Shown piece by piece: positions 37,330-47,066 of a stretch of 64,000 nucleotides of DNA; the first letter of the stretch is position 1; each line of letters opens with the position of its first letter. The translations under genes and the position numbers were made by a program. The notes beneath the pieces are model-generated. The model was given only the letters and a program-made list of their open reading frames with translations. It did no database searches and was not told where the DNA came from. Source of the stretch: an uncultured delta proteobacterium (GTDB lineage: Bacteria; Myxococcota_A; Polyangia; Polyangiales; Polyangiaceae); contig CAWAIF010000003.1 in NCBI GenBank assembly GCA_963782055.1, positions 1,792,001-1,856,000 on the forward strand, written 5' to 3'.

Positions 37330-38046
37330 ATGTCTCTCCCTGCGCGCCCCCCTCTGCGCCTGGTGCCCCCGCCCGAAGGCGAGTCCGGGACCGAGGTCGC
37401 ATCCGGACGGTCCGCCCGCACCTCCGACAGGGTGCCGGCCCCGTCGCGCCGGCACGCGCCCGCGCTCGATGACACCGAGCTCCTGACCGCCCTGCGCGTG
37501 GGTGACCCTTCCGCCGCCACCTCCCTGCACGACCGCGTCCGCCCGCAGGTCGACCGCACCATCTTCCGCCTGCTCGGCCGCCGCGACGTCGACCACGACG
37601 ATCTCGCCCAGCTCGCGATGATCGAGATCATCGGCAGCATCGATCGCTTCCGCGGCGACTGCTCCCTGGACGCGTGGACGGCGACGGTGACGGCCCACGT
37701 CGTCTACAAGCACCTGCGCCGCCGCAAGACGGAGCGCCGCATCTTCTCGCCGCCCTCGCCCGACGACATGAGCGTGGCCTCGCCCATCAGCGCCAGCCGC
37801 CAGGCGATGGTGCGCAGCGCGATGACGCGAGTGGTCCGTCACCTGGACGACATGGATGAGAATCGTGCCTGGACTTACCTGCTTCACGACGTCTGCGGGT
37901 ACGACTTACGCGAGATTGCACAGATCACGGGGGTCACAGTGGCAGCCGCACAAACGCGCCTCGTGAGGGGGCGCAAGGACATTCACGAGCGCATCGGTTC
38001 GGACCCCGAGCTCGCCAGCATCCTGGCGGAAACGGAGCGGGCATGA
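37330..38046 (+). CDS. ECF RNA polymerase sigma factor
   Basis: DDLAQ..IE...FRGDCSLDAW (region 2); GYDLREIAQITG..VAAAQTRL.RGR (region 4). Confidence 0.88.
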   Translation: MSLPARPPLRLVPPPEGESGTEVASGRSARTSDRVPAPSRRHAPALDDTELLTALRVGDPSAATSLHDRVRPQVDRTIFRLLGRRDVDHDDLAQLAMIEIIGSIDRFRGDCSLDAWTATVTAHVVYKHLRRRKTERRIFSPPSPDDMSVASPISASRQAMVRSAMTRVVRHLDDMDENRAWTYLLHDVCGYDLREIAQITGVTVAAAQTRLVRGRKDIHERIGSDPELASILAETERA

Positions 38047-39182
38047 CCTCGCCTCGCAATGCTCAGCTCGCCGCCGCGTTTCTGCGCACGCAGCGGGACG
38101 CTCTACCGGCGACGCCGCCTCACCGCGAGGTCCGCGCGCAGGCCATACTCGCGCTGCAGGAGGAGCTCGCCAAGCGTGCGAGGGCCCGCAAGCGCGCGCG
38201 CTGGGTCTTCGGCGCCGTCGCCGCGGCGGCCGCGGTCGCCATCACCGGCGGCGGCATGCTCGCCCTCCACATGCATCATGCGTCGAGCCTCGCCGCGTCT
38301 GCGCCGTCGACCCCCAAGCCCGCCGCCACGGTGGCGGTGATCGCGCATCCCACCGGCGACGTGACGGTGGTGGGTGGGGACGGCAAGCCGGAGGCCCTCA
38401 CCGACGGCAGCCTTCTGCGCGCGGGCAGCCATGTCGTGGCCCGCTCGCACGGCCGCGTCGTGCTCTCCTTCGCCACGGGCACCCAGCTCACCGCGGAGGA
38501 CGGCGGCGACGTGACGGTGATGGAGAACGGCAGCGTGCAGCGCCTGCTGCTCGCCAGCGGATCGTTGCAGGCCAAGGTCCACAAGCTCGGCCCGCACCAG
38601 CGCTTCCTGGTCAGCACCCCGGACGCGGAGGTCGAGGTGCGCGGCACCCAGTTCCGCGTCTCGGTCGTCGGGGCCGATCCGTCGTGTGGCGGCGGCACGC
38701 GCACGCGCGTCGTGGTCACCGAGGGCGTGGTGTCGGTGCGCAGCCACGGCGAGGAAGCGCGCGTGCCCGCGGGCTCGTCGTGGCCGCCCGGTTGCGTGGC
38801 GAGGACAGCGGTGGGCTCCACGGCGACCGCGCCCACGGAGCTCGCCGAGTCGACGTCGCCCCGGCCCAAGGCCGTCCCGCGGCCGGGTAACGCCGCGTCG
38901 CAGGCTTCCCGCTCCACCCTCACCGAGGAGAACGATCTGTTCGGCAAGGCCGTCGCCGCCCGCCAGCGCGGCGATGCACCGGGTGCGGTGGCCGCGTGGT
39001 CGACCTTCATCGCGAAGTACCCGAGCAGCCCCCTGGCGGAGAGCGCTGCCGTCGAGCGCATGAAGACGCTGCGCGGCGTGGACCGCGCGCGAGCGAGCGC
39101 GGCGGCGCGGCAGTACCTCGACGAGTACCCGTCCGGATTCGCGCGCGCGGAGGCCCAGGCCATCCTCGCGGAGGATCGGTGA
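38043..39182 (+). CDS. FecR-domain anti-sigma/sensor with C-terminal TPR-like domain
   Basis: TM helix; VSTPDAEVEVRGTQFRV and VTEGVVSV FecR motifs; KYPSSPLAE and YLDEYPSG; ATGA overlap with the sigma. Confidence 0.85.
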   Translation: MTSPRNAQLAAAFLRTQRDALPATPPHREVRAQAILALQEELAKRARARKRARWVFGAVAAAAAVAITGGGMLALHMHHASSLAASAPSTPKPAATVAVIAHPTGDVTVVGGDGKPEALTDGSLLRAGSHVVARSHGRVVLSFATGTQLTAEDGGDVTVMENGSVQRLLLASGSLQAKVHKLGPHQRFLVSTPDAEVEVRGTQFRVSVVGADPSCGGGTRTRVVVTEGVVSVRSHGEEARVPAGSSWPPGCVARTAVGSTATAPTELAESTSPRPKAVPRPGNAASQASRSTLTEENDLFGKAVAARQRGDAPGAVAAWSTFIAKYPSSPLAESAAVERMKTLRGVDRARASAAARQYLDEYPSGFARAEAQAILAEDR

Positions 39183-40832: not shown

Positions 40833-41423
40833 ATGGAGTCGTCGAAGAAGCAGACCATCCTGGAGGCCGCGACGCGCGTCTTCGCCCGCCACGGCTTCAA
40901 GAAGGCCTCCATCGACGAGATCGCCCAGGCCGCCGGGGTGGCGAAGGGCACCGTCTACCTCGCGGCGACCTCCAAGGAGGACCTCTTCTACCAGGTCCTG
41001 CACCGGGAGGTCCGCGCCTGGGTGGCGGAGATTTCCCGGCTCATTGACCCCCGGACCCCCGCGGACCAGCTCCTGGCCGTCATGGCCCAGACGGGCATGG
41101 ACTACCTCGCCGCACACCCCCTGGTCGGCGACCTCCTCTTCGGTAAGACCGCGGAATTACTGCCCCGCTGGTCCGACCGCCTGCTCGAGCTCCGGACCAT
41201 CGGCCACGCGAATGTGGTGGAGGTCCTACGGATCGGCATCAAGCAGGGCATTTTCCGGGCGGAGCTGGACGTGGAGGCGGTGGCGGCCCTGCTCCAGGAC
41301 ATGCAGCTCTCGACGGTCGTGTTCTACCGGCACGTCGGGGAGGAGGCCCTGGATCGGCGGAAAATGGCGGGATTTGACCTGGTGTTGAACGGGTTGAGGG
41401 TCAGGGGAGGGGGAGGCGCGTGA
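40833..41423 (+). CDS. TetR/AcrR-family transcriptional regulator
   Basis: ILEAA..VF...GF..ASIDEIA..AGVAKGTVY....SKEDLF. Confidence 0.92.
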   Translation: MESSKKQTILEAATRVFARHGFKKASIDEIAQAAGVAKGTVYLAATSKEDLFYQVLHREVRAWVAEISRLIDPRTPADQLLAVMAQTGMDYLAAHPLVGDLLFGKTAELLPRWSDRLLELRTIGHANVVEVLRIGIKQGIFRAELDVEAVAALLQDMQLSTVVFYRHVGEEALDRRKMAGFDLVLNGLRVRGGGGA

Positions 41424-41515
41424 GGGCTAGCGGAGGGTGGGAGATCGCCCTATACTCAGCGCATCCGTGCCCCGCGTGAACGCTTGCAGGAGGGAGGGCA
41501 ACGGATGCCCTTTGT

Positions 41516-41522
41516 AGAGGAG
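41516..41522 (+). promoter_or_regulatory. Shine-Dalgarno site of the lasso precursor
   Basis: AGAGGAG ending 8 nt before the ATG at 41531. Confidence 0.7.
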
Positions 41523-41530
41523 AATGCTCG

Positions 41531-41695
41531 ATGACCGATCCCAACGCCGAGGTGAAGGAGGCTCCTGCGGAGCAGGAGACGCCGAAGAAGCGCCCGTACG
41601 TGGCGCCCCGGCTCGTGGAGCTGGGGAAGGTGCGGGATCTGACGGCGGCGGGCGGGGCTTCTAGCACCGATGGTGGTTTCACTCGACGCCCGTAG
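41531..41695 (+). CDS. Lasso peptide precursor (54 aa; absent from the ORF track)
   Basis: MTDPNAEVKEAPAEQETPKKRPYVAPRLVELGKVRDLTA-AGGASSTDGGFTRRP: YxxPxLxxxGxxxxxT leader motif, Thr at -2, core Ala1 with Asp8. Confidence 0.9.
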   Translation: MTDPNAEVKEAPAEQETPKKRPYVAPRLVELGKVRDLTAAGGASSTDGGFTRRP

Positions 41696-43112
41696 GCAAC
41701 TGTTGATCTCCGGTCCCTTCGGGCTGCCTCGACTCTACTACTCCGTTGGTGACCACCGTGTCGCGCCTGAGTTGGATCGTCTGAGGCGCATCACCGACGC
41801 AGAACCGGACGATGCAGGTCTCGCGGGCTGGTGCACCGGAATCCGTGACGCTGATGCCGGCACCACACTCTTCACCCGCCTCCGCCGGCTTCAACCGTTC
41901 GAGACCATTCCAGCATCCTCTGATGATGCGGGCCGTTCCGCGCAGATGCCCGTCCTGCCGTCCCGAGCGTGGGACCGTCGATCTCCTGCAGACCTGGCGA
42001 CTGAACTCCGCGCGCGTCTGTTCAGCGCCGTCGCGAGGATTACGAAGGGAGCCCACAGGGTGGCGGTGATGCTTGGGGGCCTAGACTCAAGCGCGGTACT
42101 CAGTATCTTGACGAGGCTCTTCCCACCGACTTCCCTCTTCGCCATCACTATCCTGTTTGAAGAGGGGGAGCGCGATGCTCCATATGCTGAGGCCTTGTGT
42201 CGCCACTTCGGCGTAAGATGGTATCCGTTACCCTTGTCGAGAGCGGTGCCGGTAGAGGCGTTTGTGGTGGCTGATGCTCACCCCTGCCTCTCGCCCCACG
42301 CCGGTAGCGAGCTTGGAGCTTTTCGGCTGGCCGCAGAGCTGGGCGCCGACGTTGTCGTCACGGCAACGCTTGGCGACGCGGCGTTCGGGGGAAATCTTGG
42401 CCAAATTGGCCGCCTCTACGCCCGCCGTCATCCCATCGCGGCCGCTCGCCTCGCGCTTCGCGCTCAGCTTCCGTGGCATCCGAGTCCGCTCCGACGTGTG
42501 CGCAGTTTGCTCGTTGCACCGAACATCCGCGACCGTATGCCCGAGGTTGTACGCCGGTGGCGCTCGCGCCGGCAATGGAGAGACAGGGCTCCTTGGGTTA
42601 CGCCCCACTTTTCGAGACTACTGGAGCGACATGAGCTTTCCGCCGCCAAGCCATACTTTATTAGTACTACGCCGGCGGCTTGGCTGCGAGAGCTGGTTGC
42701 AAACGTCGATGTGTTGACCGTCACGGCCGGGCTCTCGGCCTTCGCCCAAACCTCTGGACTTCGTTGGCGGGACGCGCTCTTTGATGTGCCTCTGCTCGCG
42801 TTTCTGGCTGCTATTCCCATCGAGCGGCTACTTGATTGCAACAAGTTTCGAGGCTTGCTTCGTCGAGCGATGGCGGGCTGGATGCCGGACCCTGTTCGCT
42901 TGCGGGCTGGCAAGGCATCCATGAACGGCCGCAAGCGACACTTCCGGGCTGACGACTTGAGGGCGATGGGGGAGTTTGCCCGAGCGAGACAACTCGCGAA
43001 GCGGGGGCTTGTCGACTCGGCGGCGCTGCGTGCTGCGTTCGAACACGCCGACGACATCTCGCCCATTTGGCGTTTTCTGGCTGCCGAAGCTTGGTTGCAA
43101 CGGGTGGCTTGA
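41670..43112 (+). CDS. Lasso cyclase (asparagine-synthetase-like, C protein)
   Basis: PFGLPRLYY, GGLDSS PP-loop, LGDAAFGG, LLRRAMAGWMPDPVRLRAGK, AEAWL; adjacent to the precursor. Start uncertain. Confidence 0.85.
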   Translation: MVVSLDARRQLLISGPFGLPRLYYSVGDHRVAPELDRLRRITDAEPDDAGLAGWCTGIRDADAGTTLFTRLRRLQPFETIPASSDDAGRSAQMPVLPSRAWDRRSPADLATELRARLFSAVARITKGAHRVAVMLGGLDSSAVLSILTRLFPPTSLFAITILFEEGERDAPYAEALCRHFGVRWYPLPLSRAVPVEAFVVADAHPCLSPHAGSELGAFRLAAELGADVVVTATLGDAAFGGNLGQIGRLYARRHPIAAARLALRAQLPWHPSPLRRVRSLLVAPNIRDRMPEVVRRWRSRRQWRDRAPWVTPHFSRLLERHELSAAKPYFISTTPAAWLRELVANVDVLTVTAGLSAFAQTSGLRWRDALFDVPLLAFLAAIPIERLLDCNKFRGLLRRAMAGWMPDPVRLRAGKASMNGRKRHFRADDLRAMGEFARARQLAKRGLVDSAALRAAFEHADDISPIWRFLAAEAWLQRVA

Positions 43113-43837
43113 TGACTGTAGCAGCTGGCATTCCCTGCCTGGTGAACAGCGTGGCCGGCGGATATTCCGCGGAGTGGCCGGGCTTGGGTAGTCTCCGCAT
43201 TCAGGGCTCTTCAACTGTTCACCATACCTATGTTGATGATGCAGTTGCCGCCGAGAAGTGGCGCCGCGGTCCCGCGATGGCCGTGGAAAGATACTTGCGT
43301 CGCACCGGCGTCGGATTTCACGCGTCGGCTGTCAGTTTGCCCAGTGGCCACGCCATTGTCTTCGCCGGGGCAAGCGGTGCCGGAAAGTCCACCGCCGCCG
43401 CGGTCTTGTGTCTTCGAATGGGAGCAAGCTTGCTGGCAGATGACGTCTGCATCGGCAAGATCGACCGCGGTCAACTCTGGATAGAGCCCTCGGAGTCGCA
43501 GCACTGGCTGGATGGCCCGGCGCGCGAGCGTCTCGCGTACCCGCGTGGCCAGGGTCCTAAGCGGCCAGTGGCCGCCAGCTCGCTGGCCCACGCCCCTATC
43601 CCGGCCGCGAAGCTTGTGGCGCTGCGTGATGATGGGCCCGTGCAGCCCGTGCGCCTTCGTGGCCTGGAGGCGCTGACCGCGATAGCAGCGGCGTCGATGG
43701 CTCCCCACGTGGATGCTGAGGCGCAGAGTCGAGCCGTCGAGGATCTGGATCGGTTCGTCGTGATCGGGCGGCTCGTGGAGGTGGTGGCCTGCTGTCGTCT
43801 CCCCGATGATCTCCTGCTGCGGAAACTGGTGGCGTGA
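43112..43837 (+). CDS. HPr-kinase-like kinase (lasso-associated)
   Basis: FHASAV, Walker A GASGAGKST, LLADD; TGATG coupling to the cyclase stop. Confidence 0.82.
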   Translation: MTVAAGIPCLVNSVAGGYSAEWPGLGSLRIQGSSTVHHTYVDDAVAAEKWRRGPAMAVERYLRRTGVGFHASAVSLPSGHAIVFAGASGAGKSTAAAVLCLRMGASLLADDVCIGKIDRGQLWIEPSESQHWLDGPARERLAYPRGQGPKRPVAASSLAHAPIPAAKLVALRDDGPVQPVRLRGLEALTAIAAASMAPHVDAEAQSRAVEDLDRFVVIGRLVEVVACCRLPDDLLLRKLVA

Positions 43838-44124
43838 TGGAACGGGCTCTGACTTCCGACCGCTTCCAGGTGGCTGAGCACGTGCACGCCCGCGAGTTCG
43901 ACGGGGAGATGGTCGTGCTCGATCTGCAGTCAGGCACCTACTTCGGCCTCGACGAAGTGGGAGCCTTCTGCTGGCAGGCGCTGGGCGCCGGTCGTGCGGT
44001 CTCCGAGGTTGCGGGAGAGATCGCGGCCGTCTACGACGTCTCCCGAGACGAGGCTCTTCGGGATCTTCTAGCCTTGGCCGACGAATTATTGCAGCGGCAC
44101 CTCGTCCAACGGAGGGCACCATGA
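43837..44124 (+). CDS. PqqD-family RiPP recognition element (lasso B1)
   Basis: DGEMVVLDL.SGTYFGLDEVG..CW..L ... YDVS......DL..L..EL; TGATG coupling. Confidence 0.92.
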   Translation: MERALTSDRFQVAEHVHAREFDGEMVVLDLQSGTYFGLDEVGAFCWQALGAGRAVSEVAGEIAAVYDVSRDEALRDLLALADELLQRHLVQRRAP

Positions 44125-44507
44125 GCGGCCTGCACGTCGCCTCACGATTGGCGCTGCGGCTTCTTCGCCCACGCCAGGCTTTTCGGGTGGTGGCCGCCCT
44201 GGGGCGCCTCGTGCCCTCGCTCGACCGCACGGAGGCCGAGGCCTACGCGGTGAACCTGTCCGGGAGGGGCAGCTGCCTCTCCCGATCCGTCGCGGTGGCC
44301 GCTCGTCTTCCCGGCGCGAAGGTCATGATCGGCGTGGCGCCCGTCGGGTACGGGGCGGTGCGCGCCGCGCTCTACGGGGCAAGGCGCGGGGAGGTGCTCA
44401 AGGCGCATGCCTGGGTCGAGGTGGATGGGCGCCCCCTCGCAGGACAGCGGCCCCTGGGCAAGGTTCTGGCGACGCTCGAGGTAGCTCGACCAGTCACCGA
44501 TTCATGA
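44121..44507 (+). CDS. Lasso leader peptidase (transglutaminase-like, B2)
   Basis: CLSRS catalytic Cys, IGV, AHAWVE His motif; ATGA overlap with B1. Confidence 0.88.
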   Translation: MSGLHVASRLALRLLRPRQAFRVVAALGRLVPSLDRTEAEAYAVNLSGRGSCLSRSVAVAARLPGAKVMIGVAPVGYGAVRAALYGARRGEVLKAHAWVEVDGRPLAGQRPLGKVLATLEVARPVTDS

Positions 44508-44537
44508 TATCCTGGACGCGTCGGGAAGGAGCTTTCC

Positions 44538-45443
44538 ATGAGGAACTTGTCACGCATCGCAGCGATGGCTGGAGGGATCGTGGCCTGCAACGTCATCGCC
44601 TGGACGTCGATGGTGGGTTGCAGCGGAGACGACAACGCAATCCCCGATGGGGGCGATGCGGCCCCTGACAACACCCAGATAGATGTCTTCGTGCCCGACG
44701 TGCAGGGCCAGGACGTCGTGGGCGACGAGGACGCTGGCACCAACCCCGACGCTCCCTATGACGCAGCGTCTCTCCTAGCCTTCCCCGCCGAGGAAGCGCT
44801 GGCGAGCTGTGGTCGTCTCCGGACGTGCTGCTACGGCGCCGACGCTGGGGTCGCTCTCACCAAATGCATTGGACATGTTAGTCCACTTGGGATCAATGGC
44901 ACCCTCGTGGAATTGAGTCTCCCAGGCGTGCTTGATGGCGGGCATCTTCACCTGGATGAGACGACGGCAAACTCCTGTCTCGCAGCACTCAGTACCTTCT
45001 CGTGCCCGGTGATGCCGGAGTCCGAATACCGGAACGTCACACAGAATTGCTACGGGGCCGTGTCCGGTACCCTTCCCATCGGGGCTCAGGGGTGCAAGAC
45101 GAGCGTTGAGTGCGTGCCGGGAGCGTACTGCGCTGCTGCGACTGCGCCCGACGGCGGTCCCACGAAGGAGTGTTATGTTGTTGGCGATGCCGGCTCGCCC
45201 TGTACCGCATCCAACATCCAGTGCATGTACCGCGGGTATCTAGGCCAGAACCAGCTTCGTTGTGCCATTGACGGTGGGTCCACGGGGACATGTGGTCCCC
45301 AGCTCCAGAACGGTGCGAAGTGCAACTACTCCTTCGACTGTCTGTCGCAAACCTGCGACGAGACGGGCCATTGCGGTACTGCCTTCACACTGACGGATCC
45401 GGGGACTTGCGACTACCTCTTCTACAGCGACGCCGGGCTCTAG
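44538..45443 (+). CDS. Cys-rich lipoprotein
   Basis: AAGGAG RBS, MVGC lipobox, about 20 Cys; lower GC like the lasso genes. Confidence 0.75.
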   Translation: MRNLSRIAAMAGGIVACNVIAWTSMVGCSGDDNAIPDGGDAAPDNTQIDVFVPDVQGQDVVGDEDAGTNPDAPYDAASLLAFPAEEALASCGRLRTCCYGADAGVALTKCIGHVSPLGINGTLVELSLPGVLDGGHLHLDETTANSCLAALSTFSCPVMPESEYRNVTQNCYGAVSGTLPIGAQGCKTSVECVPGAYCAAATAPDGGPTKECYVVGDAGSPCTASNIQCMYRGYLGQNQLRCAIDGGSTGTCGPQLQNGAKCNYSFDCLSQTCDETGHCGTAFTLTDPGTCDYLFYSDAGL

Positions 45444-45461
45444 TCCGTCCCGTCGACGTCG

Positions 45462-47066
45462 ATGACGTCTCGCCTCACCGCACTGCGCCGAGCAGGTCCC
45501 TGGACCGCGCTCGGCGCGGCGCTTTTGTTCACCGAGCGCGTCGCCATCTTCGCCGCCGCCTCCGGTCTCGCCGCGCGGAGCGCCCGCGCCGCGCTCATCG
45601 CCGGGGCCGGCGCCTCCGCACTCCACCTGACCCGCTCCGCCTTCGGCTCCCTCGCCCGCACGCGGAGCCAGGCGGCGCTCTACGACGAGGCGCTCACCGC
45701 CGTGCTCGAGGGGGACGTGCTGGCGGTACAGGGCGAGAAGCTCCAGGCGACGCTCTTCTCGGCCATCGACGCCGCCGCGCGTGTCGGCGCCACCGCCGTT
45801 CCCTCGCTCATCGGTGACGGGCTCGCCGCCGCCGTCCTCGGCGTGTGGGTCGTCGCGGGCACGCCCACCGCGACCTGGGCCGTCGCGGGCGCCGCGCTCG
45901 CCGCGGGCCTCGTCCTCGCCCTGATCTCCCGTCGCGTCGCCGGCGCCGCCTCCGACCGGTTCTGGGCCGCGCACGAGCGCGTCGCGCGGCACCTCGTCGA
46001 CGGCGTGGACGGGCGCGTCGACCTCGCCGCGAGCGGTGAGGTCCCCGCCTTCCGCGAGGGCCTGCAGAGCGCCGTCTCGTCGCAGCGCTCCGTCGCGCGC
46101 CGCGCGGCCATGCTCGAGGCCTTCGCGGGACGTGCGCCCATGGCCGCCGCGGTCTTCGCCGCGCTGGGGGCCGTCCTCGCGCTTCATCCGTCGCTCGCCG
46201 GGACCGGCCTGGCGCACCTGATCGTGCTCGCCGGCGTCATGCCGCCCTTCGCGGGGCTCGCGATGTCCCTCGCGCAGGTGGCGCGCGCTCGCGGTCCGCT
46301 CCGCGCGCTGGACGCTCTCCTCCGCTCTCCGCGCATGGACGCAGGCGGTTCCTCGCAGCCTGCCGTGGCGGCCATCGATCTCCGGGGCGTGACCGTCCGC
46401 TACGGCGAGACGGTCGCCCTCGACGGGGTGACCATCCACCTGGAGCCGTCCGGCGTGCACGTACTCGTGGGTCCCAACGGGTGTGGAAAGACGACGCTCC
46501 TCGGCGTGCTCGCCCGGCTCGTTCGACCGTCCGACGGCGAGATCCTGGTCGGGGGCGACACGCTGGATGCGCTCGACCTCCGCGCCTGGCGTGCATCGCT
46601 CGGCTACCTCTCGCAGCGCCCGTACCTCCCGGTGCGCTGCTCGGTCCGCGTCGCGATGCGCTTCGTCGCCCCGCGCGCGGACGACGAGGCGCTGCGGGCT
46701 GCGCTGCGGCGGACGCGCGCGTGGGAGGTGCTCGCGAAGAAGTCGCCGGACGATCCGCTCTCCACCCCGGTCGACGGCCTGTCCGCCGGCGAGCGCCAGC
46801 GCGTCGCCCTCGCCCGCGTCCTGGTGCGCCAGCCTCGCGTGCTCCTGCTCGACGAGCCGGACGCCAACCTCGACGCCGAAGGCCGCGCGCTGCTCGTCCG
46901 GCTGCTCCGCGAGCTGGGGGAGTCGTGCTGCGTCGTCTGCGCGGCGCATGGCCGAGAGATCCGGGAAGCCGCCGATGTTCTGGTCCACCTCGAAGCAGGC
47001 CGGGTGGGCAGCGAGGAGCAGCCGCACCGTCCCCTCACCTCCGGGCGGCTCGCCTCGTCCGCGTGA
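45462..47066 (+). CDS. ABC exporter, fused TMD-NBD
   Basis: Several TM helices, Walker A GPNGCGKTT, signature LSAGERQR, Walker B LLLDEP, H-loop. Confidence 0.88.
   Translation: MTSRLTALRRAGPWTALGAALLFTERVAIFAAASGLAARSARAALIAGAGASALHLTRSAFGSLARTRSQAALYDEALTAVLEGDVLAVQGEKLQATLFSAIDAAARVGATAVPSLIGDGLAAAVLGVWVVAGTPTATWAVAGAALAAGLVLALISRRVAGAASDRFWAAHERVARHLVDGVDGRVDLAASGEVPAFREGLQSAVSSQRSVARRAAMLEAFAGRAPMAAAVFAALGAVLALHPSLAGTGLAHLIVLAGVMPPFAGLAMSLAQVARARGPLRALDALLRSPRMDAGGSSQPAVAAIDLRGVTVRYGETVALDGVTIHLEPSGVHVLVGPNGCGKTTLLGVLARLVRPSDGEILVGGDTLDALDLRAWRASLGYLSQRPYLPVRCSVRVAMRFVAPRADDEALRAALRRTRAWEVLAKKSPDDPLSTPVDGLSAGERQRVALARVLVRQPRVLLLDEPDANLDAEGRALLVRLLRELGESCCVVCAAHGREIREAADVLVHLEAGRVGSEEQPHRPLTSGRLASSA

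Follow-up and report, generated by a model that had tools for sequence, protein, structure and literature searches.

The open reading frame (ORF) at positions 41531-41695 on the forward (+) strand of the window, the 64,000-nucleotide stretch of DNA analysed here, is very likely the gene of a lasso-peptide precursor, since it combines a curated lasso-leader signature with an operon of maturation genes. The last 15 residues of its 54-amino-acid product are predicted from the sequence, with good confidence, to be released and tied into a lasso closed between Ala1 and Asp8.

The ORF opens with ATG at 41531 and closes with the stop codon TAG at 41693-41695. A Shine-Dalgarno-like AGAGGAG, read from the sequence, lies on the same strand at 41516-41522, 8 nt 5' of the ATG. 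The coordinates, start and stop re-read as the first-pass annotation had given them; the ribosome-binding site it named is present, and the leader motif it described is found in the translation as Y23-V-A-P26-R-L28-x3-G32-x4-L-T38. That annotation also called the precursor hidden. The ORF is real, but it is not hidden, as an identical 54-amino-acid protein is already a called gene in a public protein collection. The NCBIfam model NF033521 (lasso_leader_L3) matches residues 23-41 with 24.7 bits (E 1.6e-5), against a curated cut-off of 19 bits. When all six frames of the complete 7.58 Mb genome are scanned with this model, the ORF at 41531-41695 is the only match above the cut-off, the other two matches scoring 12 bits, and none of 14 control genomes contains a match over the cut-off. 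The precursor frame has a GC3 of 0.80 versus 0.53 in the overlapping ORF at 41524, which fits the coding-frame bias expected in the host genome.

Relatives of the precursor are numerous. A word-indexed protein homology search with the precursor returned only the protein itself; such a word index is too coarse for 54 residues, making the search blind to relatives. When 1.84 billion representatives were searched exhaustively with phmmer (E<=1e-3), without use of the leader motif, 24 matches emerged, including the precursor itself. Sixteen of these are precursors of 49-71 amino acids, five are longer and contain several repeats resembling the leader, and two are apparently spurious repeats. Alignment of 17 precursors, the window's included, shows no variation at M1, Y23, P26, G32 and T38 and very little at P22 and L28, and 14 of the 17 match NF033521 at E<=0.01. 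The first-pass annotation had proposed looking for homologous precursors beside related cyclases. A motif scan found them in 27 of 29 such loci in this bacterial family, a set that leaves out locus L047 of genome G299; no precursor was found in L040 or L051.

These observations bear on the simplest alternative, that a GC-rich sequence happens to leave this frame open and no peptide is encoded there. The window's DNA (71.7% GC) is full of spurious ORFs, with 133 frames of at least 30 amino acids falling within 14 kb. However, the above-cut-off NF033521 match that is unique in the genome, its absence from all 14 controls and the GC3 of 0.80 together argue that this ORF did not arise by chance. 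The homologues at the same position in the 27 loci point the same way, as does the confinement of conservation to the precursor frame. The chance-frame explanation is thus extremely improbable and, on the sequence evidence, refuted in practice.

Two independent rulers place the cleavage site. According to Duan et al. 2023 (PMC10368454), the YxxPxL motif of lasso leaders always spans positions -17 to -12. If the core begins at Ala40, Y23, P26 and L28 of the window's precursor fall at -17, -14 and -12, and Thr38 falls at -2. The two rulers agree on a cut before Ala40, so that cleavage is predicted, and supported, between Ala39 and Ala40. The rule invoked in the first-pass annotation, cleavage two residues past the conserved Thr, is borne out by Thr38 and by the concurring YxxPxL spacing. 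The leader peptide would then comprise residues 1-39 (41531-41647, +), with Tyr(-17), Pro(-14), Leu(-12), Gly(-8) and Thr(-2). The predicted 15-residue core, AGGASSTDGGFTRRP, would occupy 41648-41692 (+), with an Ala1-Asp8 isopeptide ring and a 7-residue tail.

To compare cores, the window's precursor was combined with 28 precursors from the family loci and 16 from the protein library, giving a set of 45 in which core positions were counted from the Thr(-2)-x site. The first acidic core residue lies at position 8 in 34 precursors, at 9 in nine and at 7 in one, and is absent in one. The previously stated requirement for Asp or Glu at core positions 7-9 therefore describes 44 of the 45, and in the window's core Asp8 is the sole acidic residue. 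At core position 1, Gly is the commonest residue (23 precursors), followed by Ser (10), Ala (8), Thr (3) and Asn (1), and the minority standing of Ala1 (8/45) is a point against the proposed lasso. Cores are mostly 14-18 residues long, with a length of 15 in six precursors and of 14-16 in 18 of the 45; look-alike cores include AGSGGSSDGGMPMA (P0019) and GGRTGSPDGGFRRRRG (P0020). The ring acids and Ala starts of the relatives make AGGASSTDGGFTRRP with an Ala1-Asp8 ring a well-supported prediction. The 15-residue core, ring and tail GGFTRRP put forward initially are accordingly backed both by the leader spacing and by the 45 related precursors.

A cut one residue later, after Ala40, would instead yield the 14-residue core GGASSTDGGFTRRP with a Gly1-Asp7 ring and a mass of 1346.63 Da. 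Such a core would begin with Gly, the commonest first residue (23/45), and its ring has a precedent in huascopeptin (PMC12427821). However, this cut would shift Thr to -3 and Tyr, Pro and Leu to -18, -15 and -13, contrary to the spacing stated in PMC10368454, and the first acid of the relatives lies at 8 or 9 in 43 of 45 and at 7 in one. An Ala1 start is itself precedented by caulonodin VI (PMC12427821) and by seven other members of the family. The later cut is therefore very unlikely, and the 15-residue core is retained in what follows.

For the cyclised 15-mer, a neutral monoisotopic mass of 1417.6698 Da is obtained, which reproduces the earlier hand-calculated value of about 1417.67 Da, and one added HPO3 would bring it to 1497.6362 Da. 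The core contains no Cys, hence no disulfide, which is in line with a class II lasso. With Asp8 and the N-terminal amine consumed by the ring, two Arg stand against one free carboxylate, giving the mature core a net charge of about +1, or about -1 if monophosphorylated. The initial description of the peptide as cationic is thus right about the two Arg, yet at about +1 the label is weak. Its placement among the shortest lassos also holds in part: the peptide is small but not exceptional, as 15-mers of 8+7 architecture are known and huascopeptin has 13 residues (PMC12427821). The residues named initially as candidate plugs are Phe11, Arg13 and Arg14. Phe11 stands only two Gly beyond the ring, so that a very short loop is expected and the peptide might fail to thread.

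The family set shows further features of its own. The last core residue is Met in 14 of the 45 precursors and Pro in eight, far above the expectation for a random C-terminus, and this excess may reflect a conserved step in the precursor family that recognises or trims the C-terminus. In locus L013 (9717-9938, -) of genome G002, which belongs to the same genus, a normal leader ending in Thr-His is followed by eight residues without Asp or Glu. As predicted from this sequence, a lasso ring is impossible for the L013 precursor as it stands. The gene may have decayed, the assembly may be wrong at this point, or the chemistry may be another one, suggesting that some clusters may be decayed or work differently.

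The five longer proteins from the phmmer search (P0009, P0011, P0013, P0014 and P0030; 111-382 amino acids) carry two to five tandem modules resembling lasso leaders. In P0011, P0013 and P0030, the start of a Peptidase_S74 (self-cleaving chaperone) motif follows each module, with Pfam E-values of 1e-23, 5e-8 and 3e-16, respectively. These five proteins may be multi-core precursors freed by self-cleavage, and we know of no description of multi-core lasso precursors released in this way.

The precursor gene and six genes downstream of it form one predicted operon. The lasso cyclase gene (C; 41670-43112, +) encodes an asparagine-synthase-like protein (Pfam Asn_synthase, E 3.5e-27); its start is uncertain, lying either at ATG 41670, which gives a 26-nt overlap with the precursor, or at TTG 41703. 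This cyclase is a short form of about 470-480 amino acids, compared with 550-650 in many relatives. Its PP-loop reads LGGLDS, and this departure from SGGxDS weighs against the lasso reading, although the first position is variable in the family (S 15, G 14, V 5 and L 3, in a tally of 46 regular-expression matches in 32 loci, some of them off-target). Next comes an HprK-related P-loop kinase gene (K; 43112-43837, +), whose product gives weak HprK_rel_A and Hpr_kinase_C matches.

B1, a PqqD-like (RRE) protein with a predicted role in leader recognition, is encoded at 43834-44124 (+; Pfam PqqD, E 2.3e-17), with a start at GTG 43834 or ATG 43837 and 43-54% identity to 18 homologues. B2 (44121-44507, +) is a transglutaminase-like protein and the predicted leader peptidase, matching Pfam Transglut_core3 with 27.2 bits (cut-off 26) and the lasso B2 model NF033537 with 24.1 bits, below its cut-off of 33. 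A Cys-rich predicted lipoprotein with a lipobox-like MVGC follows at 44538-45443 (+), and the last gene encodes an ABC exporter with fused permease and ATPase (D; 45462-47066, +; Pfam ABC_tran, E 1.6e-28). Neighbouring genes overlap at TGATG (C/K), GTGATG (K/B1) and ATGA (B1/B2), and the Cys-rich gene has its own ribosome-binding site, GAAGGAG. All four of C, B1, B2 and the ABC exporter have Pfam matches above the gathering scores, on the precursor's strand. None of the NCBIfam lasso models for C, B1 and B2 reaches its cut-off, all matches to them lying below, which points to divergent members of these families.

The Cys-rich lipoprotein, which matches no family in Pfam or NCBIfam, has a linker rich in Asp and 17 Cys that are invariant. 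Its structure model has a pLDDT of about 90 over residues 75-298, and a Foldseek search with this model gave no match at E<=1e-3. Residues ~178-255 of the model show weak VIA matches to Dickkopf (Z 6.0) and colipase (Z 5.2); both Z-scores are below the tool's own caution level, and the Atlas scores, at most 0.86, serve as leads only. The lipoprotein could be an immunity or export partner of the lasso peptide.

Directly 5' of the precursor lies a gene for a TetR-family regulator (40833-41423, +; Pfam TetR_N, E 2.4e-15), which may regulate the lasso cluster or be a mere neighbour. A TetR protein with 58-59% identity sits directly 5' of the precursor in two of 21 related loci (L059 and L061), and no TetR homologue at E<=1e-30 was found in five genomes of the same genus. 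An imperfect inverted repeat of 25 nt, 76% complementary, occupies 41449-41520 (+) between the TetR gene and the ribosome-binding site of the precursor. Its RNA fold is not significant (z -1.57), and the repeat could be an operator. Farther upstream, 2-4 kb from the cluster, the stretch 37330-39182 (+) holds an ECF-type sigma factor gene (Sigma70_r2, r4_2) followed by one for a FecR-like anti-sigma protein. A promoter and terminator scan detected no sigma-70-like promoters, and terminators at chance level.

Clusters of this type recur among related bacteria. Of 383 genomes from this bacterial family, 77 contain cyclase relatives with at most 35% identity, and the tally counts in the window's genome itself as well as the unpublished G299. 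The family is probably Myxococcota, to judge from two leads, an Atlas hint and the Bsf-type clusters present in a sample of the same phylum. Of 19 wider loci around related cyclases, 18 contain K, 17 contain B1, 12 the Cys-rich gene and 13 an ABC homologue, with most of the misses falling at contig ends. The ABC homologue usually stands beside the cluster, and in all 12 loci that have it the Cys-rich gene is next to B2. The same adjacency is seen in L013 and L014, which also carry kinase, B1, B2 and Cys-rich genes. The gene order A-C-K-B1-B2-(CysRich)-ABC is therefore a recurrent architecture in the family.

By sequence, the match of the kinase K to the HprK model is weak (23 bits versus a cut-off of 200), and a comparison with the PDB gave P-loop noise only. 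Its structure model (pLDDT 86.5, pTM 0.85) has PEP carboxykinases (E 7e-6, TM ~0.47) and HPr kinase (E 4e-5) as its best folds. Residues H85, G101, G106, K107, S108, D125 and D126 are invariant in 17 homologues. A profile of the K family retrieves the Bsf-type kinase of genome G409 (E 1e-20, model positions 49-210 of 216), and the pairwise identity of 52% is confined to 54 residues. With the same profile, relatives of full length also emerge from further families within the phylum. A phylum-wide tally of 144 in 301 at E<=1e-8 was rejected as a family count, being inflated by short matches to the P-loop only. A P-loop pattern from four kinases gave at least 11 distant loci among the matches listed, and in loci of Bacillus, Paenibacillus and Neobacillus distant relatives of K adjoin genes for PqqD and a cyclase. 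K is about as distant from the G409 kinase as from these Firmicutes lasso kinases. On this evidence K is a probable homologue of the Bsf-type kinase, but its site specificity cannot be read off from homology.

Two kinds of target are described for lasso kinases. The paeninodin-type kinases act on a Ser at the C-terminus (PMC8498205), whereas according to PMC10368454 BsfK, aided by B1, phosphorylates Ser3 in the ring portion of the linear precursor and depends on H148, G163, K169, S170, D186 and D187. The H-G-G-K-S-D-D motif required in BsfK is intact in K. The window's core ends in Pro, which makes phosphorylation of a C-terminal Ser impossible, and Ser stands at the core end in four of the 45 family precursors. 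The products heavier by 79.97 Da that the first-pass annotation suggested are thus reasonable, though not by way of a C-terminal Ser. By analogy, a Ser or Thr of the ring is the likely target of K, the candidates being Ser5, Ser6 and Thr7. Position 5 holds the commonest ring hydroxyl (Ser or Thr in 20 of 45 precursors), and among precursors with Ala(-1), like the window's, it does so in nine of 10. Ser5 is for these reasons our best guess for the phosphate site, with Ser6 and Thr7 as alternatives.

The lasso might instead be left unphosphorylated, as a plain product of 1417.67 Da, with K acting elsewhere or serving as a non-catalytic partner. The weak HprK-model match would suit this explanation, as would the restriction of Bsf-type identity to a 54-residue stretch and the fact that no ring position holds Ser or Thr in all 45 precursors. 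It is countered by the invariance of every catalytic-motif residue in the 17 homologues, the translational coupling of the K gene between C and B1, the presence of K in nearly all of the wider loci and the recovery of the Bsf-type kinase by the K-family profile. Moreover, 44 of the 45 cores have at least one Ser or Thr between position 1 and the ring acid, and all 45 do if the whole 8-residue tail of L013 is counted. We consider an unphosphorylated product rather unlikely, and ring phosphorylation remains the preferred reading.

Characterised split-B systems suggest, by analogy, a maturation pathway. On the linear precursor, a Ser or Thr of the ring, with Ser5 as the best guess, would probably receive a phosphate from the HprK-like kinase with the help of B1. 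B2, guided by Thr(-2), would cut after Ala39. The ATP-dependent cyclase would then activate Asp8 and join it to the amine of Ala1 around the tail GGFTRRP, and the ABC transporter would export the product. The sequence itself establishes the ORF, its leader motif, the families to which precursor and enzymes belong, the arrangement of the operon and the conservation of the cluster in relatives. Expression, the point of cleavage, the ring and its threading, a phosphate and its position, export and any activity are inferred.

The stretch 40833-47066 of the window was compared with L059, L061 and L081 for conservation of the site. In G174 and G175, which belong to another genus, a cluster lies at the same chromosomal site as in the window, with TetR on one side and, on the other, 38-77% identical genes extending to phosphoglycerate kinase. 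The cluster proteins there are 31-47% identical to the window's, and the cores differ. In G005, of the same genus as the window, the right flank is syntenic and no TetR, lasso or ABC gene occurs within 14.5 kb. GC content is 0.61-0.68 across 41200-45400 versus 0.70-0.79 in both flanks, and GC3 of the cluster genes lies below that of the neighbouring genes. The shared site, the absence from G005 and the dip in GC point to an accessory, fast-changing or exchangeable cassette, apparently at a fixed site.

These features raise the question of whether the cluster, while intact, is silent or non-productive in this organism, as part of a recently acquired or decaying accessory island. The GC and GC3 differences, the empty syntenic site in G005 and the zero count of sigma-70-like promoters are in keeping with such a state. 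The bsf cluster offers a parallel, as PMC10368454 describes it as silent, with the mature lasso never detected from it; this silence is a warning for the window's cluster family too. On the other side, all seven ORFs are open with intact catalytic motifs, the ribosome-binding sites are good and the starts coupled, and the promoter scan covers the sigma-70-like type only. A silent cluster is a possibility to be taken seriously, although we lean towards a working pathway leading to the Ala1-Asp8 lasso.

Several known systems help to place the cluster. The pathways of chaxapeptin, sungsanpin, ulleungdin and citrulassin are not known to include a kinase, and the caulonodin VI system has a fused B. 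Among the closest likenesses is the bsf cluster of Bradymonas sediminis, which likewise has split B1 and B2, an HprK-like kinase and an ABC exporter (PMC10368454). Like BsfA, the window's precursor has no C-terminal Ser, carries YxxPxL at -17 to -12 and is predicted to form an 8-residue ring on Asp8, and the H..G..G.GKS..DD motif of BsfK is conserved in K. Unlike BsfA, it has Thr(-2) rather than Ile(-2), Ala1 rather than Gly1 and Gly3 rather than Ser3. The window's operon also differs from the bsf cluster in lacking a nucleotidyltransferase gene and in having the extra gene for a Cys-rich lipoprotein. The likeness of K to BsfK was gauged with the G409 kinase as a stand-in, through the 52% identity over its 54-residue core. 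In its Ile(-2), Thr2, Ser3, Ser10, Thr11 and C-terminal Asp, the G409 precursor agrees with the published residues of BsfA. Bsf-type loci of the same phylum carry Ile or Val at -2 and Ser3, which the window's Thr(-2) and Gly3 do not match.

Systems of the paeninodin type (PadeK, ThcoK and SyanK) resemble the window's in having an HPr-kinase homologue with an intact motif in a lasso cluster, and their kinases act on the linear precursor (PMC8498205). They differ in requiring a C-terminal Ser, where the window's core ends in Pro. In overall shape, the predicted peptide is like chaxapeptin, sungsanpin, ulleungdin and citrulassin, class II lassos listed in PMC12427821, which have 15 residues, a ring from residue 1 to Asp8, a 7-residue tail and no disulfide. 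Those four are, unlike the window's peptide, actinobacterial, with hydrophobic tails and unrelated cores. Caulonodin VI (PMC12427821) also begins with Ala and provides an experimental precedent for an Ala1 isopeptide, although it differs in its Ala1-Glu9 ring, its length of 19 residues and its alphaproteobacterial origin.

Among the papers listed by full-text literature searches across journals open without subscription, none presented a characterised lasso peptide from a myxobacterial lineage or a description of the window's lasso-cluster family. In its fullest form, the reading would be of a 15-residue lasso phosphorylated on Ser5 in the ring, the first from the myxobacterial lineage. This lasso would found a large family with a standard ring-site kinase and a disulfide-rich lipoprotein, an immunity or export partner without counterpart in known lasso systems. 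Taken as a whole, this remains a tentative and rather doubtful proposition.

Antibiotic and receptor-binding activities occur among lasso peptides, whose scaffolds are compact and very stable. The precursor described here predicts a concrete product, of 1417.67 Da or, if phosphorylated, 1497.64 Da, and adds a new member to a large, uncharacterised set of clusters of this kind found in related bacteria. In itself, the precursor is solid genome mining rather than a surprise, while the kinase target and the lipoprotein merit experiments. The comparison of loci exposes a conserved Cys-rich lipoprotein in this type of lasso cluster. The cluster family also pairs short Gly/Ser-rich cores with an HprK-like kinase in the absence of the C-terminal Ser used by classic lasso kinases, a pattern that broadens what BsfK, so far the one published example of ring phosphorylation, had shown.
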